This document shows positions 6,080-52,633 of a DNA stretch of 64,000 bases, in pieces. This DNA is from Escherichia phage KIT03. Both the position numbers and the translations under genes were made by a program. Where the stretch lies: sequence record AP018932, one strand, 5' to 3'. The notes beneath the pieces were generated by a model. It worked only from the letters and a program-made list of their open reading frames with translations. It ran no database searches and had not been told where the DNA came from. Position 1 is the first letter of the stretch. Every line of letters begins with the position of its first letter.

Positions 6080-6122
6080 TTTATTCTCCAAGTTGTTTTC
6101 TGTATCAGTAGTTGATATTGAT

Positions 6123-6152
6123 ATAGTACCATAATCAACTACTGATGTATAT
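6123..6152 (-). promoter_or_regulatory. probable early promoter (TGGTACTAT extended -10; -35 poorly matched)
   Basis: -10 and leader nearly identical to promoter cassettes at 25398 and 52555. Confidence 0.35.
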
Positions 6153-6176
6153 AGTTTTATGAAAAAATTTTAAACT

Positions 6177-6674
6177 TTATGCACAGCGAGCTTTGCTATA
6201 GTGTTTAATCCAACTTTCAGGAATGACTTTGTATGTTCCTAAAAATACCGCGTTGTACAACTTAACGCCATCTTCTACCCACTGATCGGTGATGTATGCA
6301 CACATAGCGCGAGTACGGTGTTTTTGAACAACCCCTTCCTCATCTTCAGTAAATTCGAATTCATAAGGAGCAACGAACTTAATAGCTTGACCGAGTTTCC
6401 ACTTAAAGTCTACACCTACGTGCGAAGTATCAATCGTTTCAATTCCTTTAGCAGGAACAGCTTTCAAAAACGCAGACTCAAGAAATTTCGCACGAACATA
6501 GCCAAACTGAGGTTTAGATTTTCCATCTTTAGGAATGATACGCACTTTTACTTCAGAATCTTCATCTTTAACACCGTGTTTAAGCTGAATGCTTACAATT
6601 TCGACCAATTTTCCTGCTGCTTTAGAACGGGATTTATCAGATACACGAGCAATTTCACCAATATTAATAATCAT
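6177..6674 (-). CDS. hypothetical basic protein, 165 aa; possible MotB-like; paralog of next gene
   Basis: C-terminal ITDQWVEDGVKLYNAVF resembles VTDQWFEDGVELLNVVH of 6751-7287. Confidence 0.5.
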   Translation of the reverse strand: MIINIGEIARVSDKSRSKAAGKLVEIVSIQLKHGVKDEDSEVKVRIIPKDGKSKPQFGYVRAKFLESAFLKAVPAKGIETIDTSHVGVDFKWKLGQAIKFVAPYEFEFTEDEEGVVQKHRTRAMCAYITDQWVEDGVKLYNAVFLGTYKVIPESWIKHYSKARCA

Positions 6675-6750
6675 AGTTATCTCTCACTTGTTAAAAAGAT
6701 TTTATACTCCACGGGACCAGAGTATAATGGTCCCAAGAGTTTGTAAACTA

Positions 6751-7287
6751 TTAATTTAAAATAGCTACCACCGCACTACGAGGTACTACACTAAAATCAC
6801 CTGCATGAACAACGTTCAGAAGTTCAACACCATCTTCAAACCACTGGTCAGTTACCCAACCACAGACCGAAATAAATGGAGTCTTGATAGCTACCGCATG
6901 AGTTAGAAGGTCAGTAGGATCGCATTCTTGAAAGAGGATGAACTCTGCTTCATAAACCAGGATTTTCTCTATTTTGTTATTGTCTAAACGACGACCGTGG
7001 ACAATATAAGATTTAGTAAACCATTTACTTTTTTCAAAATCTTCAACAATAAATTCGCCTTCGCCAAAAACATCAGTCAGAGTTTTATGGCCGGAAATCA
7101 AGGCATTAGTTTTAATTTCAGGTTCAACCAGTTTGTAGGTTTTGCCAATTTCGATGGTCCGAGCAGTCATAAATGTTTCCTTAATTTCTAATGGTTTAAC
7201 AAGGGTGCCGTACATGCTTGCTATATCCATATCAAACGGTTTATCTACAGGATTCGGTGTGTATTTAGGATTATAATTAAATTTCAT
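6751..7287 (-). CDS. hypothetical protein, 178 aa; paralog of 6177-6674
   Basis: shared C-terminal motif with neighbour. Confidence 0.5.
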   Translation of the reverse strand: MKFNYNPKYTPNPVDKPFDMDIASMYGTLVKPLEIKETFMTARTIEIGKTYKLVEPEIKTNALISGHKTLTDVFGEGEFIVEDFEKSKWFTKSYIVHGRRLDNNKIEKILVYEAEFILFQECDPTDLLTHAVAIKTPFISVCGWVTDQWFEDGVELLNVVHAGDFSVVPRSAVVAILN

Positions 7288-7289
7288 AA

Positions 7290-7802
7290 TTATTTCATTT
7301 CAATAAAATCTATGAGTTCAGCATGCGATTTGCGGAACATTACTTGGTGCCCGCCAATGATAACTTCATCTTCAGGAACTTCATAAATCGCAATGTACAT
7401 TCCACGATCTTTTAAGTCTTCACGCTCTTCTCGGGTGAACCATCTCATCATATCATATTCACTAGCGAAAGCAAAATGATATAATGAAATAAGCCACAAT
7501 GGAATATAATTTTCAAATTGTGAATAATCTTTATTCCATTTAGTTTTAATAGCATCATTAGCATTTTCAACTAATAACTTATCATCGTGTGGAATAGGAA
7601 TACTTTCATGGCTTTCATAATTATCGCTATGATGATGAAATGACGATGAATTAATACCGCAAAATTTTAGCCAAGTTCGAGTTTTCATAGAATCAAATCC
7701 ACGATAAGGAGTTGATTGAACGCATAACTCTTGCCTAATTTTCACTATACCACTATCATCATTTAATGCGCTAAACGATGATTCAACACGATAAATTTTC
7801 AT
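7290..7802 (-). CDS. hypothetical protein, about 170 aa
   Basis: start moved to ATG at 7800-7802 (GAGGA RBS) because ORF-track start 7841 lies inside the promoter. Confidence 0.5.
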   Translation of the reverse strand: MKIYRVESSFSALNDDSGIVKIRQELCVQSTPYRGFDSMKTRTWLKFCGINSSSFHHHSDNYESHESIPIPHDDKLLVENANDAIKTKWNKDYSQFENYIPLWLISLYHFAFASEYDMMRWFTREEREDLKDRGMYIAIYEVPEDEVIIGGHQVMFRKSHAELIDFIEMK

Positions 7803-7829
7803 TTTATTATCCTCAGTAGCTATGGTGTT

Positions 7830-7859
7830 ATAGTACCACAACTAACCGAGGAAGTAAAC
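7830..7859 (-). promoter_or_regulatory. T4 early-type promoter
   Basis: GTTTAC-n18-TACTAT with TG extension. Confidence 0.55.
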
Positions 7860-7865
7860 AACTTT

Positions 7866-8549
7866 TTATCGTTTTGTTGGAAGAGATAGAGGATCGCATT
7901 CTTCCTCTGATGGAGCATCTTCAAGACCCATAGCATAACGCAAAGCATACTTCATCATCAGGATGTCTTTCGCACAGTCATGAATAGAATCATGCGCAAC
8001 GAATCCATCTAAAGTTCCTTTTGGAAGAGGACACGTGGTCATATCACGAACAAGGAGAAGTGCTTCAATTCTGGTACGAATATCACGCTGATTCCAAAAT
8101 TTACAAGGTTCTAACTTAAATGTATCAAGCTCATTCTCGGAAACGCCGTTAAGACGTTGAATATCGCGAATGAGATCGACTAAAATTGGAAAATCAAACG
8201 ACATTCCACGGCACCAGCCTTGAGATTTCCAAGGATCGATATTATGCGCATTGATGTAATCGTTGAATTTTGCAATACCATCAATGGTGCTTACATCTTC
8301 ATCGGATGGTGCAATATTTTTTCTAGCTTCAGGCGATTGATTTTTCCACCATTCAATAGTGCTTTTAGTAAAAAGACGGTGTCCTTTTTGACTTTTTAAG
8401 TCAAATTTAATTTTAATGCCACGTGAAACTAGTTCATCGAATGTTTCAACAACTTCTGGGTTAGGGTCAAAAGCAATTACAGCCAAATCAATAACAGCTG
8501 CTTTTTCACCACTTCCCATCGTTTCAAAATCTATAATAAAATCAAACAT
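7866..8549 (-). CDS. dexA: exonuclease A, DEDDh 3'-5' exonuclease
   Basis: 227 aa equals recalled T4 DexA length; N-terminal DFET exonuclease motif. Confidence 0.8.
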   Translation of the reverse strand: MFDFIIDFETMGSGEKAAVIDLAVIAFDPNPEVVETFDELVSRGIKIKFDLKSQKGHRLFTKSTIEWWKNQSPEARKNIAPSDEDVSTIDGIAKFNDYINAHNIDPWKSQGWCRGMSFDFPILVDLIRDIQRLNGVSENELDTFKLEPCKFWNQRDIRTRIEALLLVRDMTTCPLPKGTLDGFVAHDSIHDCAKDILMMKYALRYAMGLEDAPSEEECDPLSLPTKR

Positions 8550-8791
8550 TAAACTTTCCTCGCTAAATCGCGAATTTGACCTACAGTATAATCTTGGATA
8601 TAAACTTTATTAATAGGCTCATCAATAAATTTTGCCATAGATTCAATATCTTTTTGTATCTCTTCAAGACTGTATACTATCTTTAAAGCTTTTTCGCGAA
8701 TAGTAATATTTTCAGGACTAGAATTTTCCTCAATGACAGCTTTAACATTTGTCATAAGAGATTTAAACTGATACCAACTTAATTCAATCAT
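8549..8791 (-). CDS. hypothetical protein, about 80 aa
   Basis: internal Met chosen to avoid 56-nt overlap with upstream ORF. Confidence 0.4.
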   Translation of the reverse strand: MIELSWYQFKSLMTNVKAVIEENSSPENITIREKALKIVYSLEEIQKDIESMAKFIDEPINKVYIQDYTVGQIRDLARKV

Positions 8792-9044
8792 TAATAACCG
8801 CCTTATAAAGATGGTTAATTTCACCCAAAATATAATCACTGATTGTGACAGTTTTCACTTCGCCGCAAAAGAATTCTAACGCAATCAAATCTCGTTCAAT
8901 TTCTTCTAATTGAAGCATTAACTTGCCTGATTCAATTTTCACGTTTTTGCGATTTTTACTATAAGCTATTTCATAAATTTCGCTCACTTTATCTTGAAGC
9001 AGATAAAACTGATCTTTAGTTATTTCCACGAATAGCTTCCTCAA
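8784..9044 (-). CDS. hypothetical protein, 86 aa
   Basis: ORF in dexA-dda interval. Confidence 0.45.
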   Translation of the reverse strand: MRKLFVEITKDQFYLLQDKVSEIYEIAYSKNRKNVKIESGKLMLQLEEIERDLIALEFFCGEVKTVTISDYILGEINHLYKAVIND

Positions 9045-9276
9045 ATTTAATCAGCAGCTTACAGACACTTTCATCTAGCGTAATTACCGTGTCTGTATTA
9101 CTGTGATATGATTGTTTTTCAATTCGTTTAATTGCTAGTATAGTATCACTTATAAGATAAAGCTTATGAAGGAGCTCAGCTCCTGTTACCATAACATCGA
9201 GATTATCTTGCTTATCAGTATGCTTCCTTATACCATCTATTAGACGATTTAAATATTTTGAATTGATGTTAATCAT
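9016..9276 (-). CDS. hypothetical protein, 86 aa
   Basis: ORF in dexA-dda interval. Confidence 0.45.
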   Translation of the reverse strand: MININSKYLNRLIDGIRKHTDKQDNLDVMVTGAELLHKLYLISDTILAIKRIEKQSYHSNTDTVITLDESVCKLLIKFEEAIRGNN

Positions 9277-9282
9277 ATAGCC

Positions 9283-10602
9283 TCACACATAAAACACATC
9301 ATAACGACCACGTGTTACACCAACATAAAGAAGCTGCTGAGCTAGTTCAGCATCTGCATAATGAATACAAGGCGTATAAATGAAAGCACGGTCTACAGAC
9401 ATACCCTGAGCTTTATGGAATGTTGATGCAGGAAGTGCTTTCACTTTACTGAACTGTGATTTAGCATCCCAAAAATCACTCCATGGAGCTTTTCCGCCTT
9501 TGTTCCAATTTTTATAAGTTTCTGCCGTTTTACCTAAAAATAGGTTAAACTTATATAGCTCTTCATCAGATGAAATTATTTTAATCTTTTCACGATAATA
9601 TTCATCATCGCCGTAAGTTTCTACTGTTAAGTCCCAATGACGAATTAGATATTCTCCAGGAACACCACGAGCTTTAACAAACGTTGATGTATACTCTGCT
9701 TCTATAATACGAACTAATTGTCCGTTATTAAAAATAATTTCTGATACAGGCTTTCCATCAATTTTATATGTTTTAATTAACGGTTCTTGCATTACAATAA
9801 TTTCACCAACGATAAAATCTTTATCAGTTTCAAAAATCTTTTTGCGAATAATATTGTTTAACTTATCAACAGATTTATTCGTAAATGCCATTACGCGATT
9901 TTCAAACAAATCATCTAGTGATTTGACGATTGAAAAATAATTTACCATAAAATCGCGTAAAGCGGTATCACCAATAAATCCACGTACTCCATGCCCGTCA
10001 ACAACTTTATCATAAATCCACTTACCGTTGCGAACATCAGTAGCTACATCAATAATAGGAGCATTACTGCGTTTAACTTCAGTGAGTTCACACTGATAAA
10101 AATCTTTGTGTGTAAAGAATGGACTGATATAAGCAGTATTTTCTCCTGGGTCAACAGGTCTAATTTGCTTATTATCGCCTATTCCAATTATAGTACACCA
10201 CGGTGGGATAGTTGAAAGCAAAATTTTGAAGAGCTTTCTATCATACATTGACACTTCGTCGCAGATTAATACCCTGCATTTAGCTAAATCTGGTACTTCC
10301 TTCTGTTCAAAAAGAACGTTTTCTTCATATGTTACTGGGTTAATTTTAAGAATACTGTGAATAGTACTCGCTTCTTTCCCCGACAGTTTTGAAAGAATCT
10401 TTTTAGCTGCATGTGTAGGAGCTGCCAAAATGATACCAGTTTCGCCCGTAGATATTAAAGCTTCAATGATGAACTTAGTAAGAGTAGTCTTACCAGTACC
10501 AGCAGGTCCATTAATAGTTACATGATGTTTCTTTTCTTTAATAGCCCTCATAACGATGTTAAAGGCATTTTTCTGACCTTCGGTCAAATCATCAAATGTC
10601 AT
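9283..10602 (-). CDS. dda: Dda DNA helicase (SF1)
   Basis: 439 aa equals recalled T4 Dda length; Walker A GPAGTGKT. Confidence 0.88.
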   Translation of the reverse strand: MTFDDLTEGQKNAFNIVMRAIKEKKHHVTINGPAGTGKTTLTKFIIEALISTGETGIILAAPTHAAKKILSKLSGKEASTIHSILKINPVTYEENVLFEQKEVPDLAKCRVLICDEVSMYDRKLFKILLSTIPPWCTIIGIGDNKQIRPVDPGENTAYISPFFTHKDFYQCELTEVKRSNAPIIDVATDVRNGKWIYDKVVDGHGVRGFIGDTALRDFMVNYFSIVKSLDDLFENRVMAFTNKSVDKLNNIIRKKIFETDKDFIVGEIIVMQEPLIKTYKIDGKPVSEIIFNNGQLVRIIEAEYTSTFVKARGVPGEYLIRHWDLTVETYGDDEYYREKIKIISSDEELYKFNLFLGKTAETYKNWNKGGKAPWSDFWDAKSQFSKVKALPASTFHKAQGMSVDRAFIYTPCIHYADAELAQQLLYVGVTRGRYDVFYV

Positions 10603-10910: not shown

Positions 10911-10911
10911 A

Positions 10912-11658: not shown

Positions 11659-11693
11659 ATTTTTCTCACATCTTACGGACGATTGACTACTAT

Positions 11694-11723
11694 ACTATAA
11701 CATTTTTACCTTAGCTTGTAAAC
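11694..11723 (-). promoter_or_regulatory. T4 early-type promoter
   Basis: GTTTAC-n18-TATAGT. Confidence 0.5.
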
Positions 11724-13019: not shown

Positions 13020-13049
13020 TTCAGAAGCTATCATATCATTGTTAGAAAG
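13020..13049 (-). promoter_or_regulatory. T4 early-type promoter
   Basis: GTTTAC-n18-TATGAT with TG extension. Confidence 0.5.
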
Positions 13050-13070
13050 GAAAGTAAACAACTTTTTGAA

Positions 13071-13253
13071 TTATTTTGCCCAGGGAGCCCAGGGCGGAGG
13101 GTCAAGATGGTATGAAGCTAGTTCTTCTAGAAGAGCATCTGGGGCTTCAATTCCATAATTCTGTAATACTATACGGTACTCTTTCTTATAATCACTAGAA
13201 TCATTCTGGATATTCGTAGAATGATTATCTTCTAACATCTCAAATAAATCCAT
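13071..13253 (-). CDS. hypothetical protein, 60 aa, Pro/Trp-rich C-terminus
   Basis: ORF; short GC-rich 3' end cccagggagcccagggcgg. Confidence 0.4.
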   Translation of the reverse strand: MDLFEMLEDNHSTNIQNDSSDYKKEYRIVLQNYGIEAPDALLEELASYHLDPPPWAPWAK

Positions 13254-15105: not shown

Positions 15106-15174
15106 AGTGCTCTCCTCTATAAGATAATTCTATTATACCATACTCATTTTGATATGTAAACTGCAAAAACGAAA

Positions 15175-15197
15175 AAAGGAACCCCGAAGGATTCCTT
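15175..15197 (-). terminator. hairpin with UUCG loop directly after soc stop
   Basis: plus aaggaa-ccccgaagga-ttcctt. Confidence 0.5.
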
Positions 15198-17868: not shown

Positions 17869-17910
17869 ATTAACCTCTATTCATAAAAGCATTAAAAATT
17901 TGGTCATCAA
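17861..17910 (-). repeat. about 45-nt direct repeat, copy 1 (3' end of gene plus junction)
   Basis: catattaacctctattcataaaagcattaaaaatttg... nearly identical to 18221-18269. Confidence 0.7.
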
Positions 17911-18226
17911 TCAATGGAATAGCAACTTTTTCTGCATCATTTAGCAAATCATTAATTTCATCAGATAGCATAACACATGTATCTTTATTTCCTGTAATTG
18001 TTACTGCGCAATTACGAACATTTTCTTTATTAAATTTTAGGTTAATATTTTCGTAATGAAAATCCTTTAATGCTGAATATATTTTTAAAATAAAATTGTC
18101 TTTTACTACAATAAACCCAACCTCACTATTAAAACGTGGCTCATGGAAACTGTAATAAACCTTTTCATCTATAAAATCGTATGAAATTTTTTCCATTTTT
18201 AAATATGAAAATTCAGAACTATACAT
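17870..18226 (-). CDS. hypothetical protein, 118 aa, C-terminus DDQIFNAFMNRG
   Basis: ORF; shares C-terminal tail with next gene. Confidence 0.5.
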   Translation of the reverse strand: MYSSEFSYLKMEKISYDFIDEKVYYSFHEPRFNSEVGFIVVKDNFILKIYSALKDFHYENINLKFNKENVRNCAVTITGNKDTCVMLSDEINDLLNDAEKVAIPLIDDQIFNAFMNRG

Positions 18227-19175: not shown

Positions 19176-19205
19176 ATAATATCTCAATTTCCAATAAAAG
19201 TAAAC
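19176..19205 (-). promoter_or_regulatory. T4 early-type promoter
   Basis: GTTTAC-n18-TATTAT. Confidence 0.45.
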
Positions 19206-19649: not shown

Positions 19650-19678
19650 AACAATCTCCTCATTTAACCAACAAGACT

Positions 19679-19708
19679 ACTATACCATAGTCTTGTCGGC
19701 TTGTAAAC
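19679..19708 (-). promoter_or_regulatory. T4 early-type promoter
   Basis: GTTTAC-n18-TATAGT with TG extension. Confidence 0.55.
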
Positions 19709-22663: not shown

Positions 22664-22740
22664 TCATTTTTTCCATAGGCATCATTATATTTTCCTCACT
22701 GGTTAAAGATAGAGTAATTATAACACAATAAATTTAGGCA

Positions 22741-23589
22741 TTAATCAACTGCTATTGGATGAATAGCATTAAACTTATGAAACGCTTCTGATTTTTCTTT
22801 GCGCGAAACACACATGCGAAGAACCTTTAATGGCTCGTCTTCTTCACCCAACGATTTTCTCTTTTCAATATTCGATGTTTTCCAACGAGCTTGCTCTGGA
22901 AACTCTCTATTGATTTGCTCAAGAGCTCTATTATGTTTTGAATTACTACGAATTGAACTGCACCCGCCCGGAGCCTGTGCTTTTCCAGATACAACCAGAT
23001 ATTTGAACAAGGCCAAATGCGGATAACCTTGATTAATTAAATTGAGAAATGCATACATATCTTCGCATAAATCAATTTTTCCATACCCAATTTGTTCTGT
23101 TGTAAGTTTCCCGAGGTCATACCAAGTATTCGTGAATCCATATGAATTTTCACGATAATTACCCCAAGATGAAGTAATTTTAAAAATAGGTAGACGAGCA
23201 TGACCGTGATAATACCCGCAATCCATGGCATCTTCCACGTATTGAATCAATTCATAGAACTGTTCACGAGTTAATTGATTAATTTTATCTACACAGCGAC
23301 GATCATCTTTCTTTCGCATTGAACTCATACGAATAGTAGTATCATCATCAATCATCCAGATTCGTTGACCTGCATACATATCAGTAATTGCTTTACGAGT
23401 ACCAGCAATTCCATTAACATCATCAGGAATAGTTATAATTTTGGCTTTAGACCCGTAAGCGTCATAATAAGCTTTTTCTTCGTGTTCACGTACTACAATA
23501 TGAGGTTCATAATCAGTCGGAAACATATCAAGGGCAGAAACTGCCCCTACGCGTTGATAGCTTGGAATTACGAATTGAATCATTTCCAC
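22741..23589 (-). CDS. DNA glucosyltransferase, 282 aa, at the T4 beta-gt position; possibly T2/T6-type
   Basis: ORF between uvsX and 42; shorter than recalled T4 beta-gt (351 aa). Confidence 0.5.
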   Translation of the reverse strand: MEMIQFVIPSYQRVGAVSALDMFPTDYEPHIVVREHEEKAYYDAYGSKAKIITIPDDVNGIAGTRKAITDMYAGQRIWMIDDDTTIRMSSMRKKDDRRCVDKINQLTREQFYELIQYVEDAMDCGYYHGHARLPIFKITSSWGNYRENSYGFTNTWYDLGKLTTEQIGYGKIDLCEDMYAFLNLINQGYPHLALFKYLVVSGKAQAPGGCSSIRSNSKHNRALEQINREFPEQARWKTSNIEKRKSLGEEDEPLKVLRMCVSRKEKSEAFHKFNAIHPIAVD

Positions 23590-25123: not shown

Positions 25124-25360
25124 TCAAATGCAAGTAGTAATTACTCCAGTAGTGCTTATGCAGGTATTACCCATTTGCACACCTAAAGATCCATTTGTAT
25201 TCACATGAAGATTATCATCAATTTTAACTGATATTTTACCATTAGTGTGAATAACGGTGCTAGATTTAATCACAGGTTGAGTATCATTTTCAACACTAAT
25301 AAATGGAACTGCTACTAATGCAACTAAACAAACTGCTAAACATCCCATAACAATTTTCAT
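25124..25360 (-). CDS. secreted/membrane protein, about 78 aa
   Basis: ATG at 25358-25360 after GGAGAATAAA leader; N-terminal signal-like segment. Confidence 0.5.
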   Translation of the reverse strand: MKIVMGCLAVCLVALVAVPFISVENDTQPVIKSSTVIHTNGKISVKIDDNLHVNTNGSLGVQMGNTCISTTGVITTCI

Positions 25361-25397
25361 TTTATTCTCCAAATCTGTATCAGTAGTTGATAGTTGT

Positions 25398-25427
25398 ATA
25401 GTACCATAGAAGAACAGGGATGTAAAC
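25398..25427 (-). promoter_or_regulatory. T4 early-type promoter in a promoter-stem-loop cassette
   Basis: GTTTAC-n18-TACTAT with TG extension. Confidence 0.6.
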
Positions 25428-25512
25428 AGTTTTGTGAAATTTTTTAGGGAATTCTAAAGGTCCAGAATCATCTGTTTTTCATAAGTATAGATTTATATTA
25501 CTTGTATGAAAA

Positions 25513-25530
25513 AGGGACCCGGAGGTCCCT
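25513..25530 (-). terminator. hairpin with UCCG loop 13 nt after gene 43 stop
   Basis: plus agggacc-cgga-ggtccct. Confidence 0.55.
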
Positions 25531-28297: not shown

Positions 28298-28315
28298 AAG
28301 GGGCCGAAGCCCCTT
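28298..28315 (-). terminator. hairpin with UUCG loop between regA and gene 43
   Basis: plus aaggggc-cgaa-gcccctt. Confidence 0.55.
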
Positions 28316-28317
28316 GC

Positions 28318-28686
28318 TTAATTACCAATCGTGTATTTAGGAACGAGTTTCCATTCATGTTTTTGTTTAAAAGAAATAACTCGGAAGTTATTAGTTAAAT
28401 CTTTCATAAAAGTTCTTTGACCAGGAACGATTTCAATCAGTCCCCAATCTTCTAACAGCCATGCAATCGAATCACGACGAACTTCATCTTCTTCTGTCAT
28501 TTCAACTTGGCGACCATCCATACGAAGCATTTCTTTAAAATGAACGATATAGTATAGTCCTTTTTTCTGAAGAATATGACAGGACTGATACAGAACTTTA
28601 TCTTTATTATTAGCAATTCCCATACGAGTCAAAGTTTCTTTTACTTTCAGAAAATCTTCAGGTTTTTTAAGAGTAATTTCAATCAT
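28318..28686 (-). CDS. regA: RegA translational repressor
   Basis: 122 aa equals recalled T4 RegA length; position between 62 and 43. Confidence 0.8.
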   Translation of the reverse strand: MIEITLKKPEDFLKVKETLTRMGIANNKDKVLYQSCHILQKKGLYYIVHFKEMLRMDGRQVEMTEEDEVRRDSIAWLLEDWGLIEIVPGQRTFMKDLTNNFRVISFKQKHEWKLVPKYTIGN

Positions 28687-30246: not shown

Positions 30247-30260
30247 AGGGCCGAAGCCCT
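30247..30260 (-). terminator. short hairpin with UUCG loop between genes 45 and 44
   Basis: plus agggc-cgaa-gccct. Confidence 0.45.
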
Positions 30261-33346: not shown

Positions 33347-34201
33347 TCACAATGAAGAAAATTCTTTAACTAAAGCCTGTAATGAAGCCTCTATTGGATA
33401 TCCATTCTTAACTAACATTTTCCTAAACATTACATGTTTAGGACGATTATATGATATCCACAATTCATACAATTTATCTTTATTATCCCAATGATAGCCT
33501 TTTCGTCGAGATGCTATATGAGCTTTTCTAATCTCCGGATTTTTCCAACTAGCAGCTACTGAATTTGATATAGCTATTTTATATTCAGGTTTTGATAAAG
33601 CAGCACGAACAGCCTTTTGGTGTTTAATTTTATTTTCTTCGTTATTAAACCATTCCCTTGAAGCCATTGAAATTTTTTGTTTTGTTTTAAAATTATTTAA
33701 TCTTTCTTTATTATCTTTCCTATTTTTTGCTACTGAAAAATATTTTAATGCCCTTTCTCTAGCAGCATTTCTATTTTGCGGATTTGAATAATACTGTTGA
33801 AGCCTTTTTGATATTGTGTCACTTACATCTTGTTTTATAAAACTATACTCAGCAGCTATTAAATCAACTTCGGCTAAAGATAAATTTTTATATGTTTTTC
33901 CTGACATCATTCTATTTAAAGCATTTAGCATTTTTCCATTTTTACCTTTTGCTAATAAGAAGTGTGCTTTAAAATGATTAAAATGACTTAAATTAACTAA
34001 ATTCCATGTAGATTTTAAATATTCAGGAAATATTGATTTAGGAAGCACGTGGTGTGCTTCCGTTTTACCTGGAGTTTTAACAGTTGAATTCACAGAAATA
34101 AAATTAATGTAAGACTTGGCGTCTTCTTCACTCAACGCTAATTTTTCAACTAATTCCTTTATTAAAAATTCATCATTAATGTCAAGTTTAAAATTCTTCA
34201 C
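33347..34201 (-). CDS. free-standing HNH homing endonuclease, 284 aa
   Basis: HH...N...H motif (EAHHVLPKSIF...NLVNLSHFNHFKAHF) and basic C-terminal DNA-binding region. Confidence 0.65.
   Translation of the reverse strand: MKNFKLDINDEFLIKELVEKLALSEEDAKSYINFISVNSTVKTPGKTEAHHVLPKSIFPEYLKSTWNLVNLSHFNHFKAHFLLAKGKNGKMLNALNRMMSGKTYKNLSLAEVDLIAAEYSFIKQDVSDTISKRLQQYYSNPQNRNAARERALKYFSVAKNRKDNKERLNNFKTKQKISMASREWFNNEENKIKHQKAVRAALSKPEYKIAISNSVAASWKNPEIRKAHIASRRKGYHWDNKDKLYELWISYNRPKHVMFRKMLVKNGYPIEASLQALVKEFSSL
33347..34201 (-). mobile_element. homing endonuclease gene inserted between genes 46 and 47
   Basis: T4 has only small ORFs here (recalled); N-terminal motif duplicated in next ORF. Confidence 0.5.
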
Positions 34202-35664: not shown

Positions 35665-35801
35665 ATATCAAGAACCGTCATTGAAATGCAAAATAAAATT
35701 AATGAAATAAATCCATCTGGAGTGCTAAAGAACCCAATCCAACACGCTCTGGTGAATAGATAAAATGCGAGAAAAAGTATCACATATCCAAGAAATATCA
35801 T
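35661..35801 (-). CDS. small hydrophobic protein, 46 aa
   Basis: hand-translated MIFLGYVILFLAFYLF...; GGAG RBS; stop overlaps gene 47 ATG. Confidence 0.4.
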   Translation of the reverse strand: MIFLGYVILFLAFYLFTRACWIGFFSTPDGFISLILFCISMTVLDI

Positions 35802-35824
35802 TATATCAAACTCCGTATAAAGCT

Positions 35825-35842
35825 AAAGGGCCGAAGCCCTTT
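35825..35842 (-). terminator. hairpin with UUCG loop at a-gt stop
   Basis: plus aaagggc-cgaa-gcccttt. Confidence 0.55.
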
Positions 35843-37043
35843 ATTTTGTAATAATGTCAAACTGTTCTTTAAAGCAGAAGCTTGAATCTTGATGCTGATA
35901 CAAAAATTCATAAGCTTTTTCACGTTCGCGGTCATAAAGAGTTCGGTCAGATGACAGTTCTTTAATACGTTCAAATGTTGATTCCATGTCATTTTCATCA
36001 AACCAAATGATACCGCTATCATGCGAGGTCAAAGGAGTATTATCAACACGGAATTTTAAATTTTCGCCAGTAGATTTCCAAAATACCGGAATTGTTCCAC
36101 ATGCACCAAGCTCGAGATGAGTATATTCTAAAGAACGTTGTAGATATTTTTTATCCAACTTACTCAACTGATAACCAAAACCGGATTTACTCATACGTTC
36201 AAGCATTTCGCTATTTACATAACGGTCAAGAATTTGCGTTGGCAAATTAGGAGCAATTTTAATTTGGTCTACTTGATGAAGACGATAATACTCGTATGGA
36301 ATTCCTTTTTCTTTAATAGGAATGAACGCTGGAGAACGTTCCAGACCTTCCATAATAGTACTTAGTCCTGCAGGTTTAAGATGTTTTTCGTGAAAATCAA
36401 ACATCTGATAAAAACCTTTCCATGTAGTCGTACGACCAATCCAACGGTTGATATTCATGTTAATTTCAGAAACATCTTTCCAGTAGGTTGATCGAACCTT
36501 CGCAATATCCATAGGAGGCTGAAAGTTATATACGGTCGGTGCTTCTTCAATATCATCAAACAGAGAAACAGTTTCTGGATACCACTCTTTCATCAGAACT
36601 TTATTAAAATCACCATTATCAGAATGGCTAAAAATAACATCAGCTCGACGAACAGTTTCTTCTAATCCCAAATTTCGGCGCAAAGAAAGAGAAGAATGGT
36701 CATGTTGATAAACTACAACACGAACCGAAGGTTTAATGTTATCAATAATTTTTTTATAGTTATTAATAGTGTCTTCTTCTACTGAAGTAGCAGGAACTGA
36801 ATTGATAATTAGAATATCACAATCATTTACCAGCTTAAGTGTTTTATCGTATTCTTTTGCCAATAAAACCGGAATTGAAAATGATTTATAATCATGCGCG
36901 CAATTACGAGTAAATGATTTATCTTTAGCATAAACCAAAGTTACTTCATGACCATTTTTAATAAACCAATCACGCTGCTCGAGAGAAAATTTAGTTACGC
37001 CGCAACCTTCAAGACCTCGAGCCATAAAAATACATACTTTCAT
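35841..37043 (-). CDS. a-gt: alpha-glucosyltransferase
   Basis: 400 aa equals recalled T4 alpha-gt length. Confidence 0.85.
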   Translation of the reverse strand: MKVCIFMARGLEGCGVTKFSLEQRDWFIKNGHEVTLVYAKDKSFTRNCAHDYKSFSIPVLLAKEYDKTLKLVNDCDILIINSVPATSVEEDTINNYKKIIDNIKPSVRVVVYQHDHSSLSLRRNLGLEETVRRADVIFSHSDNGDFNKVLMKEWYPETVSLFDDIEEAPTVYNFQPPMDIAKVRSTYWKDVSEINMNINRWIGRTTTWKGFYQMFDFHEKHLKPAGLSTIMEGLERSPAFIPIKEKGIPYEYYRLHQVDQIKIAPNLPTQILDRYVNSEMLERMSKSGFGYQLSKLDKKYLQRSLEYTHLELGACGTIPVFWKSTGENLKFRVDNTPLTSHDSGIIWFDENDMESTFERIKELSSDRTLYDREREKAYEFLYQHQDSSFCFKEQFDIITK

Positions 37044-37093: not shown

Positions 37094-37113
37094 ATAGGAG
37101 CCGAAGCTCCTAT
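37094..37113 (-). terminator. hairpin with UUCG loop (8-bp stem)
   Basis: plus ataggagc-cgaa-gctcctat. Confidence 0.55.
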
Positions 37114-39464: not shown

Positions 39465-39480
39465 AAGGGCCGAAGCCCTT
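39465..39480 (-). terminator. hairpin with UUCG loop
   Basis: plus aagggc-cgaa-gccctt. Confidence 0.5.
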
Positions 39481-40311: not shown

Positions 40312-40341
40312 ATAATACCACAGTTTGAACTTCTTGTAAAC
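40312..40341 (-). promoter_or_regulatory. T4 early-type promoter
   Basis: GTTTAC-n18-TATTAT with TG extension. Confidence 0.5.
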
Positions 40342-47074: not shown

Positions 47075-47126
47075 GTTCTTCTCACTTGGTTAATGATTTA
47101 TACTCCGAGCCATCCTTGGCTTTAAA

Positions 47127-48128
47127 TTACTTAATTAACTGTAAAGCTTGTTCTAGACGATCAAGACGATTAACAGATTCTTCCCAAATCCTTTTAGCCT
47201 GCTCATATTCTTTCTGCGCTTTATTAGAAATTTCTAGAACTTCTTTATAAGCTTTTTCTAGTGCAATAACTTCTGGACGAATTTCTACCGGTTCAGGTGA
47301 ATCATCAAGATTATCCATTAGTTCCTCAAGGGTAGTTTCTTCTTTAGGAGTATTCACAATTTCATCACATTTTTGTTGATAAATTTCTTTATCAGTCGGT
47401 GAGTACGCGCACTTTAATTCACGAAGGCTAATTACAATTTTATATCCTTCCCAACCGCATATATTCTTAAAAGGATATGTATGAATATTTTCTACTGTTT
47501 CCATACAAAGTAATGCAGTCTCTAACTGACGAGTTATAGTGCTAGCAATTGAGAAAAATTTATTAATATTCTTTTGGCTAGCGTTTGGTGTAAAAAATCC
47601 ATAATTCACAAAAATAGCTACTTTATTTTCATCAAGCTCATATTCTTTTACGATAATCATATCAGAAGCCAAAGGATGAATTTGACGATAATCGCCATAA
47701 CATAATTTAGAAGCTGATTTTAGAATTTGTCCTTTGAAAAGTTTGAAATTACTAATCCAACGACGAGTAAAAATATTCTCAGGGTCTTCTTTATTATTAA
47801 GATGATAAGAATTAACATCACCGAACCAATTATATCCTACTACATCTTTAGTTCGTTTAATTTCTTTCCCAAAATTACCAAGAATATCCCGATTAACCAA
47901 ATATGAAAGAAGACGAGACTCTTTAAAGGTTTTCTTGATAACATCTTTATCTACACGGCTAGAAATTTTACGAATTTCATGAATAAATTTAGTAGAAGAA
48001 ACAATACTTGCATCAACACTATTGAGCCATTGATTGATAATAGAAAGAACGATATTTTGACCAAACATCGGTATAGCTTTATCATCAATAACGCTATTGA
48101 ATGATTTGATATATTCGTTACGAGTCAT
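47127..48128 (-). CDS. coiled-coil protein, about 333 aa, paralog array member
   Basis: ATG at 48126-48128 with GAGGAG RBS; ORF-track start lies in promoter. Confidence 0.6.
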   Translation of the reverse strand: MTRNEYIKSFNSVIDDKAIPMFGQNIVLSIINQWLNSVDASIVSSTKFIHEIRKISSRVDKDVIKKTFKESRLLSYLVNRDILGNFGKEIKRTKDVVGYNWFGDVNSYHLNNKEDPENIFTRRWISNFKLFKGQILKSASKLCYGDYRQIHPLASDMIIVKEYELDENKVAIFVNYGFFTPNASQKNINKFFSIASTITRQLETALLCMETVENIHTYPFKNICGWEGYKIVISLRELKCAYSPTDKEIYQQKCDEIVNTPKEETTLEELMDNLDDSPEPVEIRPEVIALEKAYKEVLEISNKAQKEYEQAKRIWEESVNRLDRLEQALQLIK

Positions 48129-48156
48129 AATAATCTCCTCAGTAGAAAGTAAGAAC

Positions 48157-48186
48157 ATTATACCACATCCTTGTGGCAATGTAAAC
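48157..48186 (-). promoter_or_regulatory. T4 early-type promoter
   Basis: GTTTAC-n18-TATAAT with TG extension; near-identical to promoter at 2418. Confidence 0.6.
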
Positions 48187-49205
48187 TAGTTCAGTGCATT
48201 TAGTGCATTGTTCAGTTTAGAACGTTGCTTCGTAAGATTTTTGACTTTTTCTTGAGCTTTTTCCAACATCTTTTCAGCTTCTAGCACTTCATTGGTCGCT
48301 TTAACGAGTTCATCATCTACTGCCTTGATAGACTTCTCAATCGCATCCGCGTGCCATTTTTCAACAGGTTTAAGACTCGGATTTTCAACAGGAAGAAAAT
48401 TCACTTTATTGAATTTCCATGCATCATTATTACCTGAACTATACATCCAAAATTTAGGATCGTTTGATAAGTAATTGGATAAATTTAAGTTATCTTGCAC
48501 TTCCTGCTTTTTCTCTTGCGGGACTTCGTCCTTTCTCAAAAAATCGTATTTAAATGAAACGATCATATCAAGTTCATATGATGTTGTATCTAACTTAAAT
48601 CGTTCAAAACGAGGTAAAATCTTAGATTGAACAGCAGCAACAACATCCATATACTTAAATGCTTCTGTCAACTGCGATTTAAGGCATTCGCAAATTGAAA
48701 GAGAATTTTTTGTATTAGGTTTAAAGCTAATTCGTGCAGTTCTATTATTTTCTTTTAATGGTCTTACTTCCATCTGAAGAGTATAACCATCAAATTTCAG
48801 GTTCTTTAAGTTAATATCAGAACCTTTTAATCGACTCGCAGTTGATAAAATTTGCTTTAATTGTCTACGGAATAGAGCAATAAATCTCCATTCAATACGA
48901 TAATGATTTGGATTGAAAAATCCAGATGATAAATCGACCTTACTTTGACCAACGCCTTGAACAAATAGAGGATTTTTATAATCAATAGTTTTACAGAAAT
49001 CGGTGAGCTGCTCACGAGCAGTCATTTGTGTAATATATCCCGCTTTATCAAAATGACGTAACCATTCACTGCTATTCATATACTTAAAGTGAATGGAACT
49101 ATTAACTCTATCAGGGTCTAAATTATTTTGGCACAAAAATGTCATAACATTACGGGTATAGCTGGCATTACGAACCATATCTTCAATTTGAGAACGAGTT
49201 TTCAT
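48186..49205 (-). CDS. coiled-coil protein, 339 aa, paralog array member
   Basis: starts MKTRSQIED; C-terminal coiled coil. Confidence 0.6.
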   Translation of the reverse strand: MKTRSQIEDMVRNASYTRNVMTFLCQNNLDPDRVNSSIHFKYMNSSEWLRHFDKAGYITQMTAREQLTDFCKTIDYKNPLFVQGVGQSKVDLSSGFFNPNHYRIEWRFIALFRRQLKQILSTASRLKGSDINLKNLKFDGYTLQMEVRPLKENNRTARISFKPNTKNSLSICECLKSQLTEAFKYMDVVAAVQSKILPRFERFKLDTTSYELDMIVSFKYDFLRKDEVPQEKKQEVQDNLNLSNYLSNDPKFWMYSSGNNDAWKFNKVNFLPVENPSLKPVEKWHADAIEKSIKAVDDELVKATNEVLEAEKMLEKAQEKVKNLTKQRSKLNNALNALN

Positions 49206-49213
49206 AGTGTTCC

Positions 49214-50122
49214 TTAAGATTTAAGTAAATCAACAATTTTAATTAACTTTTCACGCTCAGATTTAGCTTTACTACTCAATCCAGATAGTCTGAAAATTTC
49301 ATCGTCATACTGTTGAATAGAAATATTCAGCTCTTCAATTTGCTTATTAAAATAATCAATTTGCTCAGAATGTTTTTCATTACTGCGAACTGGTACAGGG
49401 TTTGTAGGCAATTTAGTTGAACTGGATTCATCCGGGCGATAAATTAAAATACAACTTGAACCAATTGGACATTTTGCACCAGATGAATATTCTAACGTTC
49501 CAGCTTCTTTTAAAACTTCAAAAGCTAAACAGAGATGATGCCCCATATTAACATAATCTGTAGAGCGAGCTCTGATATAATAATCATCGCCGCGAATACT
49601 AAATTTAAAGCATTTAAGGTCTTCTGTATTATTGGTCTTAAAAATCATTTGTTTATCTAGACCTTTAGCTAATCGAGCGCCTAATGCTAATAATCGTCGT
49701 TGATTTTCCCACAAATCCGCAATCATTTGATCGAATGACAATTTCGGCATTAGTCTACCATAAAGGTCATATCCTTTATTATAATTACGAAGGATTTCAC
49801 TCGCGTTAATACGAGACAACGCTCCAATTTTATTAAGGGCTTTCATAATGCGATTAGATAAACCCATTCCAGACCCGTTTGTTCGCTGTAAATGTTTTTC
49901 TAATCCAAATCCAATATCAACTTTAAACTTATCTAAAATTTCTGCATGAACATCTCTGTCAATAACATTCAAATCCAAAGTTGGGTTAAATCTATGAAAA
50001 AATTTATCTGGCTCTCCACGACGAAGTACAGTCCATTCATTCATTTTTTTATTAACTAAAGATTTAATTACTGTATTGACATTATTAATTACTACTGACA
50101 TATTTTCCTCACTCAATTTCAA
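49214..50122 (-). CDS. coiled-coil protein, 302 aa, paralog array member
   Basis: C-terminal coiled coil. Confidence 0.6.
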   Translation of the reverse strand: MKLSEENMSVVINNVNTVIKSLVNKKMNEWTVLRRGEPDKFFHRFNPTLDLNVIDRDVHAEILDKFKVDIGFGLEKHLQRTNGSGMGLSNRIMKALNKIGALSRINASEILRNYNKGYDLYGRLMPKLSFDQMIADLWENQRRLLALGARLAKGLDKQMIFKTNNTEDLKCFKFSIRGDDYYIRARSTDYVNMGHHLCLAFEVLKEAGTLEYSSGAKCPIGSSCILIYRPDESSSTKLPTNPVPVRSNEKHSEQIDYFNKQIEELNISIQQYDDEIFRLSGLSSKAKSEREKLIKIVDLLKS

Positions 50123-50516
50123 TTTTACTAAATACGCAGAATATGATGGAAAAGACTATATAAGCACCGCATACAGATTGAACTAATACCATTCCAAAGA
50201 ACCAAACAATATTATCAAACAATGTCTGTTTTACGTCGAAAGGACGTAAACTTACAGTAATATTATCGCCTTTTTCTATTGATGAATACATCTCTGGGGA
50301 AATATATTCGCTAAATCTATAACCGTCTTTGAGTTCATATACGGCAATAAACGATAAACTAGACCCCTTTCCTTGAGTTCCTATAAGGGTATTAACTACA
50401 GTAACATCATAATCTTTATAATGCATATAATCATTAATTGCGTAATAACCATATGCAACTACTACGCATAAACAACATATCAATAAATTCAATCTTTTAA
50501 TTATCAACTGTTTCAT
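50109..50516 (-). CDS. membrane protein, 135 aa
   Basis: hydrophobic N- and C-terminal segments. Confidence 0.5.
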   Translation of the reverse strand: MKQLIIKRLNLLICCLCVVVAYGYYAINDYMHYKDYDVTVVNTLIGTQGKGSSLSFIAVYELKDGYRFSEYISPEMYSSIEKGDNITVSLRPFDVKQTLFDNIVWFFGMVLVQSVCGAYIVFSIIFCVFSKIEIE

Positions 50517-50552
50517 AATAATCTCAATTAAAAGGGCTTAGAACCATTATAC

Positions 50553-50585
50553 CATCCTTGGTATAAAGCGGTTATGCGAGTACCG
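50553..50585 (-). promoter_or_regulatory. possible extended -10 promoter (TGGTATAAT), weak -35
   Basis: minus-strand TGGTATAAT. Confidence 0.3.
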
Positions 50586-51099
50586 TCTTTAACCGTTCTT
50601 CAAACTTCCGAAGAGTGTTCTGGCGTTCAGCTCTTTGCTTTTTGTAAGTTTCAATACGCTCTGAAATGAGAGTGTATCGTTCATTTACTGATTCTTTCAT
50701 AAAATCAGGAATTTCACGAGAAGCTTTAATCTCGTCAAATTTATCAATAACAGCTTGCTCTTCAGCAATTAAGTTATCATACATCAAAATATCTTTCTTG
50801 ATGAACTCAATATCTTCTTGAGTTACACGAGATAATTTAGATGCTTTATCCTTTTTGTACTGTTCGTTAGTATCACGAGACCAGTGTAATGTACGATTTT
50901 TATTCGTATTCTTATAAATTTCTACAATACCAATCTCATCAATAATAACGATCCAATTCCAACGAGATTTGTAAATTTGTCCTCCGTCAACCGTGATTTC
51001 ACCTCCGATTGAGATGTCATTAAAGAACTTGCTTTGTGCTTCAGATTTAAATTTACCATCATTGTAGTTTACTAAGTTGAAAATATCTTTAGCATTCAT
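50572..51099 (-). CDS. hypothetical protein, about 175 aa
   Basis: ATG at 51097-51099 with GGAGGA RBS. Confidence 0.5.
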   Translation of the reverse strand: MNAKDIFNLVNYNDGKFKSEAQSKFFNDISIGGEITVDGGQIYKSRWNWIVIIDEIGIVEIYKNTNKNRTLHWSRDTNEQYKKDKASKLSRVTQEDIEFIKKDILMYDNLIAEEQAVIDKFDEIKASREIPDFMKESVNERYTLISERIETYKKQRAERQNTLRKFEERLKTVLA

Positions 51100-51119
51100 T
51101 TTCTGTTCCTCCGTAGTTG

Positions 51120-51149
51120 ATAGAGTAATAATACCACAGAGGAACAGTC
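51120..51149 (-). promoter_or_regulatory. T4 early-type promoter
   Basis: GTTTAC-n18-TATTAT with TG extension. Confidence 0.5.
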
Positions 51150-51159
51150 TTGTAAACAA

Positions 51160-51462
51160 CTAAAAGAAACTTCTTTCACAATTTTTTCCACTGAACCATG
51201 CGCTCACTGCTTTCTTAGTCTCAGGAGCAGTATTATCCATAAACCATTCAAAGGCAGCCTTTTTATGATTCTGGAGGGCTTCTCGGGCTTTAATCTGCTC
51301 ACGGTCTATTAACACTAACATATGAGCCTTTCTTGTCACCATGGGCTTTGAATATTCCCAATCATTTGTCCATCGCATCGTTGTTGCGAATTGAAGTACA
51401 GCTTCTTTAATTTTAGTTTCGTAAATTTCACGAGCCTTTGAGTATAACATTACTACCTCCAT
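51160..51462 (-). CDS. hypothetical protein, 100 aa
   Basis: ORF. Confidence 0.5.
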   Translation of the reverse strand: MEVVMLYSKAREIYETKIKEAVLQFATTMRWTNDWEYSKPMVTRKAHMLVLIDREQIKAREALQNHKKAAFEWFMDNTAPETKKAVSAWFSGKNCERSFF

Positions 51463-51551
51463 TTACCAGTTTAATTCTAGTCATCTTTTTGATGGCAGTC
51501 CATATAATCTATTTCTGAACTGCCTTTTTATCTTAGAAGGCCTCTTATGAA

Positions 51552-52520
51552 TTATTTCAGAAGAGTAACCTCAGCGATTTCTTCCCAACCGTTTTTGTCG
51601 GTCATAATAAAGTCAGCAAGATAAAGAGCAGTACGCAGTGAAACATTGCGTAAACGATTAACATTGACTTTCATCCATGATAATGCTTTATAAGTTTCTT
51701 CATCAGAAAGACCGCGCTTTTGCATCATGTCAGTTGAAAGAATAACATCTTCAACCCTGACCATAATTTCTTCATTAGTGTGAACACCCAAATCCAAATA
51801 AACTGAGCGGGACACTAATGCTTGTAAATGTGGAGCAAGTTTAGTACCACGGTCTAATTCGCGGTCAATGTCAACGTTTGTGATAAAAACAATCGTTCCT
51901 TTAAATTCAAACTCACGCTCAATGCCTTTTTCTTCTAAGTAAGAAGATGCAGTGCTCCAGCAGACTTTACGGGTCTCTCCAGTGTCCAGAGCAGCTTTCA
52001 GAAGATTAAGAATGTCCATATCAGAGAAAACATCCACATCATCAATCAAAAGGACAGAATTCTCTTCACGATTATTCCAAAGCTGCTCATAAAGACCAAT
52101 ACCAGAGATTTTACCATTAATGCTTTTATATTCAATGTATCCAATATCATTTGCTTTATTTAAAGCTTTATCTAAAGAATACGTTTTACCAATACCCGCC
52201 GCACCAGAGATAATTAATGAACGAATGTTTCCGTTAATAATACCATTCGTCATCATTCCCATAACATTAAATCTTTTATTAATGCGGGTTTTCATATCTT
52301 CATATGATTCTTTAACTTCTTCAACTTTTACACCATCATATGAAATGTCTGATTTGTAAACCCAAACACCGCGACGTTTACCGTCAATTTCAACAAAAAC
52401 TTTACCATCTCCTTGTGCATCTACTGGGGCATTATCAGGGAACCACTCACCTAAGAGTTCAAAAGTTCCAGAGATTTCTTTGCCAAAGTAGATACCCTTA
52501 TTGATAGTTACAGTTTTCAT
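51552..52520 (-). CDS. P-loop ATPase (AAA-like), about 322 aa
   Basis: Walker A GAAGIGKT, Walker B LLIDDVD; ATG at 52518-52520 after GGAGAATAAA leader. Confidence 0.6.
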   Translation of the reverse strand: MKTVTINKGIYFGKEISGTFELLGEWFPDNAPVDAQGDGKVFVEIDGKRRGVWVYKSDISYDGVKVEEVKESYEDMKTRINKRFNVMGMMTNGIINGNIRSLIISGAAGIGKTYSLDKALNKANDIGYIEYKSINGKISGIGLYEQLWNNREENSVLLIDDVDVFSDMDILNLLKAALDTGETRKVCWSTASSYLEEKGIEREFEFKGTIVFITNVDIDRELDRGTKLAPHLQALVSRSVYLDLGVHTNEEIMVRVEDVILSTDMMQKRGLSDEETYKALSWMKVNVNRLRNVSLRTALYLADFIMTDKNGWEEIAEVTLLK

Positions 52521-52554
52521 TTTATTCTCCAAATCTGTATCAGTTGATAGTTGT

Positions 52555-52584
52555 ATAGTACCATAAAGCTTTATGCTTGTAAAC
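52555..52584 (-). promoter_or_regulatory. T4 early-type promoter in a promoter-stem-loop cassette
   Basis: GTTTAC-n18-TACTAT with TG extension. Confidence 0.6.
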
Positions 52585-52613
52585 AACTTTGTGAAAAATT
52601 TTTGAAATAAAAA

Positions 52614-52633
52614 AGGGAGCCCGAAGGCTCCCT
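52614..52633 (-). terminator. hairpin with UUCG loop (8-bp stem) plus U-tract
   Basis: plus agggagcc-cgaa-ggctccct. Confidence 0.6.

Follow-up and report, generated by a model that had tools for sequence, protein, structure and literature searches.

Escherichia phage KIT03 (sequence record AP018932) carries, in the 64,000-nucleotide stretch analyzed here (the window), three genes that begin with a common block of promoter, leader and ribosome-binding site, together with further early promoters and with hairpins closed by UUCG or UCCG tetraloops. Taken together, these elements are very probably the immediate-early start units of a T4-type phage plus intercistronic CUUCGG-type hairpins, and the repeated units (cassettes) would also serve as recombination patches. 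The window is the first ~64 kb of a T4-like coliphage (Tequatrovirus), about 98% identical to phages AR1 and wV7; a 6-kb sample of it matched ~500 Tequatrovirus genomes at 95–99% identity, and AR1 and wV7 were the best matches. According to the T4 and AR1 annotations, its gene order is colinear with that of T4 from rIIA (1–2178) to the lysozyme (e)/nudE region, every gene lies on the minus strand, and the GC skew is uniformly negative. All cassettes, promoters and hairpins described below are on the minus strand unless stated otherwise. Expected counts for specific motifs were obtained from 100 shuffles of the sequence, none of which reached the observed count for any of these motifs.

A leader shared by three gene starts

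A preliminary description of this DNA had placed the three gene starts at 6079, 25360 and 52520, which is correct, all three being on the minus strand (cassettes c1, c2 and c3, respectively; Table 1). It had further called their promoter, leader and initiation region near-identical. The extended -10 element, the leader, the ribosome-binding site and the ATG are indeed shared, but the 49-mer quoted for them is exact only at 25358–25406, with no second match at up to 3 mismatches, and the other two copies carry small indels. The copy at 52518–52563 is shorter by 3 nt (one ACT of ACTACT), and the copy at 6077–6131 has 2 substitutions after the -10 element plus 6 extra nt before the ribosome-binding site, where GAAAACAACTT replaces GATTT. 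A single gapped pattern fits all three copies, and its expected number in shuffles is 0.

When the leaders of 18 early-promoter regions were compared, the pairs within the trio gave identities of 0.92, 0.83 and 0.76, the top three of 153 pairs, while the remaining pairs averaged 0.57 ± 0.09 with a maximum of 0.74. The likeness of the three leaders is therefore above what AT-rich sequence gives; the preliminary description had named the lack of such an excess as its refutation. For the promoter proper (-52 to -7), the identity within the trio was 0.67–0.72, just the upper end of the family. Since the trio exceeds the family in the leader and hardly in the promoter proper, the repeated unit is mainly the stretch from the -10 element to the ATG.

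In all three copies the conserved block ends in GGAGAATAAAATG, which supplies the Shine-Dalgarno sequence and ATG, and an A/T-rich UP element, AAAATTTTTTCA(C/T)AAAA, stands before the -35 element and aligns with T4 motA and e.8. Cassettes c2 and c3 match the T4-type early promoter exactly (GTTTAC(A/T), a 17-nt spacer, and the TGn-extended -10 TAnnnT), and c1 has a TGG-TACTAT -10 with a degenerate -35, ATATAC. The same promoter and leader also stand before T4 motA and e.8, and shorter relatives precede nrdC.8 and denV. Judged by sequence, the three copies belong to a paralogous sub-family that includes T4 motA and e.8 and shares ~45–55 nt from the -10 element to the ATG. A 91-nt query taken from c2 matched 8–9 places per Tequatrovirus genome in 555 records, and T4 has all three cassettes at the same loci (upstream of cef, imm.1 and nrdC.10). 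The central 23 nt of the leader, ACAACUAUCAACUACUGAUACAG, are CA-rich and identical between loci. The leaders are unstructured, with folding energies of 0 to -1.7 kcal/mol, and an Rfam search of the whole window returned zero matches; on these two grounds, a structured RNA leader was ruled out.

The strong consensus for cleavage by RegB with S1 is GGAGRAYARAA (Durand 2006, PMC1702504; Uzan and Miller 2010, PMC3014915). The last 11 nt of the leaders, GGAGAAUAAAA, which overlap the AUG, match it exactly, and the consensus occurs at exactly 3 sites in the 64-kb window, one per cassette, against 0.46 expected. At the folding energies given above, the leaders would be single-stranded, as RegB requires. 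The predicted sites agree with known strong RegB/S1 sites in the 11-nt motif, in the single-stranded context, and in overlapping the Shine-Dalgarno sequence, which is typical of targets in early genes (Durand et al. 2006, PMC1702504). Given the exact consensus at the end of each leader, we infer that expression of the first cistron behind each copy would come as a burst, which a RegB cut in the ribosome-binding site would then end.

In the mechanism that we propose, a start unit would open with an A/T-rich UP element and a -35 reading GTTTAC, followed by a -10 with the TGn extension; a short CA-rich leader free of structure would then lead to the GGAG Shine-Dalgarno sequence and the ATG. The host sigma-70 RNA polymerase would fire these promoters immediately upon infection, and a hairpin with a U-run would end the upstream transcript just ahead of the next promoter. 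By cutting within the ribosome-binding site, RegB would shut off the early burst of the first cistron. The presence of the same 50–100 nt at several loci may also provide a homology patch for ectopic recombination, which would occasionally swap, insert or delete the small open reading frame (ORF) behind a cassette, or convert one copy to another, as in the published model of promoter-early stem-loop (PeSL) cassettes.

Polymorphism and possible recombination at the cassettes

PeSL cassettes were first described in RB49/phi1 (Arbiol, Comeau, Kutateladze, Adamia, Krisch 2010, PMC2839356) and were extended to T4/PST in the form TTTACW-N17-TAYWAT, with the stem-loop just upstream and the Shine-Dalgarno sequence and ATG at the 3′ side (Comeau, Arbiol, Krisch 2014, PMC4122927). 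The elements of the window had been likened to mobile regulatory cassettes of T4-type phages, and this assignment proved right in class, as the elements fit the published PeSLs (PMC2839356, PMC4122927). Both have an AT-rich tract, an early promoter, and a Shine-Dalgarno sequence with ATG at the 3′ end, and both lie beside small ORFs that differ among close relatives, in the window at c1 and c2. The PeSL layout is tight only at c3 and at the hairpins starting at 56183, 15197 and 13095, while c2, whose hairpin is 85 nt off, and c1 fit it loosely.

The cassettes had also been taken to mark module boundaries where gene shuffling occurred. This holds for two of the three loci, c1 and c2, which are polymorphic, but not for c3 (nrdC.11/nrdC.10), which does not vary within the genus; as a general rule in the window it is not supported (see the junction counts below).

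Among ~530 related genomes, three alleles occur in the slot behind c2: the 78-aa ORF of the window (324 records), an unrelated 83-aa ORF (31 Tequatrovirus records; RB51, T2, RB27), and no ORF (T4, T6), in which case, as seen in T4, c2 would directly feed imm.1. Between the window and T4, the junction at c2 lies at a repeated ATGAAAAT. Between RB51 and the window, homology spans the promoter and breaks inside the leader right after CTATCAACTAC; past this breakpoint RB51 has an nrdC.8-type leader and its own ORF, and homology is back at the imm.1 Shine-Dalgarno sequence. PeSL crossovers were mapped between the -10 element and the Shine-Dalgarno sequence/ATG (Arbiol 2010, PMC2839356), the same zone in which the RB51 breakpoint lies. 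A homolog of the RB51-type ORF is found in another slot in Dhakavirus IME08 (rI.-1/mobD.3), behind a cassette made of a UUCG hairpin, GTTTAC, TGATACTAT and TATCAACTA.

Cassette c1 is identical in T4, AR1, wV7 and RB51. The 89-aa ORF behind it is present in the window, AR1, wV7 and RB51, and has a ~208-bp internal deletion between AAAAT microhomologies in T4, RB32 and T6, so that T4 retains the promoter, leader, ATG and last 18 codons. In RB51-type phages, homology at c1 breaks at the 5′ edge of the cassette.

Possible traces of exchange between copies were also found. In the e.8 cassette of T4, the promoter is of the c2 type and the leader of the c1 type. From -35 to -10, c2 of the window and of wV7 has the same sequence as the e.8 cassette of wV7 itself, and 4 clustered changes set it apart from c2 of AR1, in a region that is otherwise ~98% identical. 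These clustered changes, which match e.8, suggest one ectopic conversion event at c2 in the window and wV7. The 3-nt difference of c3 was dropped as evidence of conversion, because ACT-ACT slippage can produce it. Cross-genus mobility of a cassette in Mosigvirus SF was likewise rejected, as the element there is the orthologous e.8 promoter and reflects conservation rather than transfer. An exact scan of IMG/VR with the leader gave 2 loci.

Over the whole window, indels and replacements of at least 40 bp were mapped against T4, AR1, wV7 and RB51, which gave 47 distinct breakpoints, and 120 gene junctions were classed. Polymorphism was seen at 8 of the 24 junctions that carry an early promoter or hairpin and at 29 of the 96 others (Fisher p about 0.47); in this respect the cassette junctions of the window, not being enriched for indels, differ from PeSLs.

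Several observations concern other insertions and ORFs. An ORF just upstream of the e.8 cassette (RB51 L016, 4018–4491; wV7 L014, 3466–3939) is absent in T4, and its annotation in RB51 reads "flanked by 34 bp imperfect direct repeat"; it may be another cassette-associated insertion, outside the window. In wV7 and RB51, a 245-bp insertion (ORF 43.1/RB32ORF047c) lies at 28317–28319, precisely in the gap that separates the regA stop codon from the UUCG hairpin 28315–28298, which precedes gene 43. A 284-aa ORF between genes 46 and 46.1 (33347–34201, minus strand), with a PHROG homing endonuclease/HNH match (E 8e-45), is absent from T4, AR1 and wV7. A 118-aa ORF adjoining 61.2 (17870–18226, minus strand) is absent from T4; with 32.8 bits, above the cut-off, it matches Pfam AdfA (anti-DarT factor A) in the C-terminal portion of that family.

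Early promoters and hairpins across the window

The description of about 15 early promoters by the form GTTTAC-n18-TGGTAYWAT had the spacing wrong. The literal motif matches no site, because 18 is the distance to TAYWAT, not to TGG. The strict pattern GTTTAC-n14-16-TGGTAYWAT occurs at 9 sites against 0.01 expected, and the relaxed pattern GTTTAC-n14-16-TRNTANNNT at 15 against 0.37, and every one of these sites is on the minus strand with a spacing of n15. In three further early promoters, one of them the copy at 6123, the -35 is degenerate or the TG/TA dinucleotide before the -10 is missing. Generic scans were uninformative in this AT-rich window: the sigma-70 consensus gave 88 sites (89 expected) and the terminator scan gave 13 terminator-like sites (8.7 expected). 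Early promoters of T4 (Pe) have reportedly been catalogued by Wilkens and Ruger in 1996 and by Miller et al. in 2003. The window promoters have the same arrangement of UP, -35 GTTTAC, TGn and -10, with no difference in kind, and two promoters in KIT03 would drive an extra small ORF that is missing or deleted in T4. Their architecture, as read from the sequence, matches the description of T4 early promoters as UP/-35/TGn/-10 elements that out-compete host promoters (Hinton 2010, PMC2988021).

Eleven intergenic hairpins with UUCG or UCCG loops had been reported. All 11 are present as perfect hairpins, but 9 are intergenic and 2 lie within coding sequence. With perfect stems of at least 5 bp, there are 11 such hairpins on the minus strand versus 2 on the plus strand (simulated mean 0.44), and where the stem is 6 bp or longer, UUCG far outnumbers every other tetraloop. 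A 12th hairpin, 15197–15176, contains one G.U pair. The two within coding sequence are an 8-bp GC-rich UUCG hairpin in gene 40 (21444–21425) and a 7-bp AT-rich UCCG hairpin in regA (28392–28375), both on the minus strand; the one in gene 40 is too strong for an obvious chance event.

Several hairpins had been placed directly upstream of a promoter. This applies to three UUCG hairpins (56183, 52633, 15197) and one other GC-rich hairpin (13095), which end 14–29 nt before the -35, but not to the hairpin at 25530. A tight hairpin thus precedes 4 of the 18 early promoters. The hairpins at 56183, 52633, 25530 and 15197 are followed by a U-run, and no U-run was found after those at 4334, 28315, 30260, 35843 and 37113. 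With folding energies of -14 to -17 kcal/mol, the U-run hairpins resemble intrinsic terminators, and those lacking a U-run are probably RNA stability or processing structures. Hairpins with C(UUCG)G tetraloops in the intercistronic regions of T4 are said to have been described by Tuerk et al. in PNAS in 1988. Those of the window do not differ from them in kind: both have GC-rich stems and a C-G-closed UUCG loop, stand after stop codons and in some cases carry U-runs, except that in KIT03 2 of the 11 are inside coding sequence.

A second repeated cassette was observed at 4290–4334 and 35800–35843 (minus strand), upstream of gene 39 and of 47.1. It consists of AAAGGSCTTCGGSCCTTTAGCTTTAT, a UUCG hairpin with a tail forming a MotA-box-like sequence, and of TATAAT 12 nt later, and the two stems differ by a compensatory G/C swap. 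The site upstream of gene 39 is the known T4 middle promoter P39.

Cassette c1 contains a perfect 13-bp inverted repeat (6146–6134 and 6116–6104) that brackets the -10 element. It reads ATCAGTAGTTGAT-(17 nt with TGGTACTAT)-ATCAACTACTGAT at 6104–6146 (minus strand), stands in place of the usual -35/spacer, and is identical in T4, AR1, wV7 and RB51. As single-stranded DNA it folds at -11.5 kcal/mol (z -5.5). This arrangement resembles that of RB49-type PeSLs, in which the stem-loop overlaps the promoter, but it is not general in the window. Inverted repeats bracketing the -10 are not enriched among the 18 early promoters (5 of 18 have arms of 5 bp or more, a count that is also reached in 47% of shuffled sets), and they were rejected as a general promoter feature; the two conspicuous cases are c1, with 13 bp, and the dmd promoter, with 8 bp. 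In the dmd early promoter (19671–19696, minus strand), ACAAGACT...AGTCTTGT bracket the -10 box. The c1 repeat could be an additional operator, or read-through RNA could fold into a hairpin there. A 14-bp perfect palindrome, CATAAAGCTTTATG, lies in the spacer of the nrdC.10 promoter (52565–52578, minus strand); it is kept in T4 and may be a coincidence, ~4 such being expected by chance in 64 kb.

Table 1 Cassettes, early promoters, hairpins and adjoining genes of the KIT03 window
Feature	Position	Strand	Description
Cassette c1	6077..6180	-	Between motB and 89-aa ORF (AR1 ar1_010; in T4 a deleted stub, then cef). A/T-rich UP-like tract; -35 ATATAC 6152-6147; TGG + TACTAT extended -10 6131-6123; leader; GGAGAATAAAA 6089-6079; ATG 6079-6077
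89-aa ORF behind c1	5810..6079	-	PHROG 3720, unknown function
Cassette c2	25358..25455	-	Between gene 43 and 78-aa ORF (ar1_049), then imm.1. UP tract; GTTTAC 25427-25422; TGGTACTAT 25406-25398; leader 25397-25371; GGAGAATAAAA 25370-25360; ATG 25360-25358
78-aa ORF behind c2	25124..25360	-	PHROG 4189; signal-peptide-like
Hairpin after gene 43	25513..25530	-	C(UCCG)G + U-run, terminator-like, -13.9 kcal/mol; 85 nt upstream of c2 -35
Cassette c3	52518..52633	-	Between nrdC.11 and nrdC.10; complete PeSL layout. C(UUCG)G 8-bp hairpin 52633-52614 + U-run (-17.3 kcal/mol, z -4.35; 20-29 nt upstream of promoter); UP tract; GTTTAC 52584-52579; TGGTACTAT 52563-52555; leader; GGAGAATAAAA 52530-52520; ATG 52520-52518
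nrdC.10	51552..52520	-	322 aa, behind c3; weak AAA/STAND NTPase similarity, below Pfam cut-off
PeSL upstream of mobD.5	56121..56183	-	C(UUCG)G hairpin 56183-56166 + U-run, then promoter GTTTAC..TGATACTAT 56150-56121
PeSL upstream of mrh.2	15132..15197	-	UUCG hairpin 15197-15176 (one G.U) + U-run, then early promoter 15161-15132
Hairpin + promoter upstream of modB	13030..13095	-	GC-rich hairpin 13095-13078, then early promoter 13059-13030
Early promoter, nrdC.8	51128..51157	-	Leader core TATCAACTAC then directly GGAGGAACAGAAAATG; short-leader relative of the trio
Early promoter upstream of rIIA.1	2418..2447	-	GTTTAC-n15-TGGTATAAT
Early promoter, rIIA.1 class	7830..7859	-	
Early promoter, rIIA.1 class	11694..11723	-	
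Early promoter, rIIA.1 class	19176..19205	-	
Early promoter, rIIA.1 class	19679..19708	-	
Early promoter, rIIA.1 class	22717..22746	-	Degenerate -35
Early promoter, rIIA.1 class	40312..40341	-	
Early promoter, rIIA.1 class	48157..48186	-	
Early promoter, rIIA.1 class	55330..55359	-	
Early promoter, rIIA.1 class	60317..60346	-	
Early promoter, rIIA.1 class	63010..63039	-	
Intergenic hairpin	4317..4334	-	C(UUCG)G without U-run
Intergenic hairpin	28298..28315	-	Same kind as 4317..4334
Intergenic hairpin	30247..30260	-	Same kind as 4317..4334
Intergenic hairpin	35824..35843	-	Same kind as 4317..4334
Intergenic hairpin	37094..37113	-	Same kind as 4317..4334
Intergenic hairpin	39465..39480	-	Same kind as 4317..4334

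Alternatives and significance

Several points weigh against reading the cassettes as start units that also act as recombination patches. Besides the junction counts, which show no excess of polymorphism at cassettes, most breakpoints fall at gene junctions with or without a cassette, and many of them are homing-endonuclease/intron insertions or microhomology deletions. The differences from T4 at c1 and c2 are bounded by 5–8-bp microhomologies (AAAAT, ATGAAAAT), so that recombination between cassettes is not needed to produce them. The cassettes occupy orthologous positions in T4, AR1, wV7 and RB51, and the e.8 cassette is at the orthologous site even in Mosigvirus SF, with 88% identity; vertical inheritance under selection therefore explains most of the distribution. 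A single-site test of concerted evolution (A/G in GATACRGA; C/T before ATGG) was inconsistent across T4, AR1, wV7 and RB51. Only c3 of the trio has the full layout of hairpin then promoter, and c1 lacks an upstream terminator and has a poor -35. Expression, termination and RegB activity in KIT03 are deduced from the T4 literature and from consensus matches.

Many of these points would follow if selection alone kept the copies alike, each having to be an early promoter of maximal strength and to carry a RegB site and an optimal leader without structure. The copies would then pass down vertically, each at its fixed locus, with no special role in shuffling. The orthologous, near-identical cassettes of the four relatives, the conserved e.8 element of Mosigvirus SF, the lack of enrichment at cassette junctions, the invariance of c3 and the use of microhomology in the T4 deletions at c1 and c2 all fit this explanation. 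It does not account for the central 23 nt, which are identical between loci with no known functional requirement, nor for the RB51 breakpoint within the leader, hybrid cassettes such as e.8, the patch of four clustered changes at c2 in wV7 and the window that matches the paralog e.8, and the occurrence of the same ORF family behind different cassettes in different genera. We regard selection alone as possible, though unlikely.

Function rather than recombination might also keep the leaders identical if the leader were a dedicated cis-regulatory RNA element, a translational enhancer bound by S1 or a site for a phage factor, for a co-regulated immediate-early set of motA, e.8, the ORFs upstream of cef and of imm.1, and nrdC.10. 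Conservation is higher in the leader than in the promoter proper, and the regulator gene motA has the same leader. The leader is also CA-rich and unstructured and ends with an exact RegB/S1 site, and the targets of S1 include ACA and A-rich motifs (Durand 2006, PMC1702504). However, it has neither an Rfam family nor a stable structure, its copies tolerate indels of 3–7 nt in mid-leader, the genes behind the leaders have no evident common function, and RegB/S1 needs no specific sequence 5′ of GGAG (Durand 2006, PMC1702504). We therefore consider such an element rather improbable. We hold with equal reserve, as a doubtful extension, the idea that the 23-nt core together with the RegB/S1 site might form a portable post-transcriptional tag, which would put motA, e.8 and the first cistrons of c1, c2 and c3 under one burst-then-shut-off programme and would be a preferred crossover for plugging in ORFs.

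An autonomous or site-specific mobile element inserting at new sites, such as a repeat like a miniature inverted-repeat transposable element or a homing-endonuclease target, would produce dispersed copies, and the 13-bp inverted repeat of c1 could be read in its favor. Yet the copy ends show neither terminal inverted repeats nor target-site duplications, every copy is at an orthologous locus in all genomes compared (T4, AR1, wV7, RB51), the homing endonuclease insertions of the window are at other junctions, and no empty site paired with a target duplication in the filled site was seen in the close relatives compared, which makes this origin highly improbable. Chance resemblance of AT-rich intergenic DNA, for which the generic sigma-70 counts at background level might speak, was refuted by the shuffle counts and the ranking of the trio in leader identity, and all motif matches being on the coding strand, its likelihood is negligible.

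The reading as immediate-early start units with hairpins, at which recombination would occasionally act, holds nothing new in kind, as its elements all belong to classes already known, namely PeSLs, early promoters of T4, CUUCGG hairpins and RegB sites. For the PeSL idea the window brings a caution, since over 64 kb and four relatives the cassette junctions are no more rearranged than ordinary ones, and the role of cassettes in shuffling therefore deserves a genus-wide statistical test. The value of the analysis is mostly one of annotation: it shows where a T4-like genome has its immediate-early transcription units, its terminators and its probable RegB targets, and it pinpoints one clearly polymorphic "expression slot" behind gene 43.

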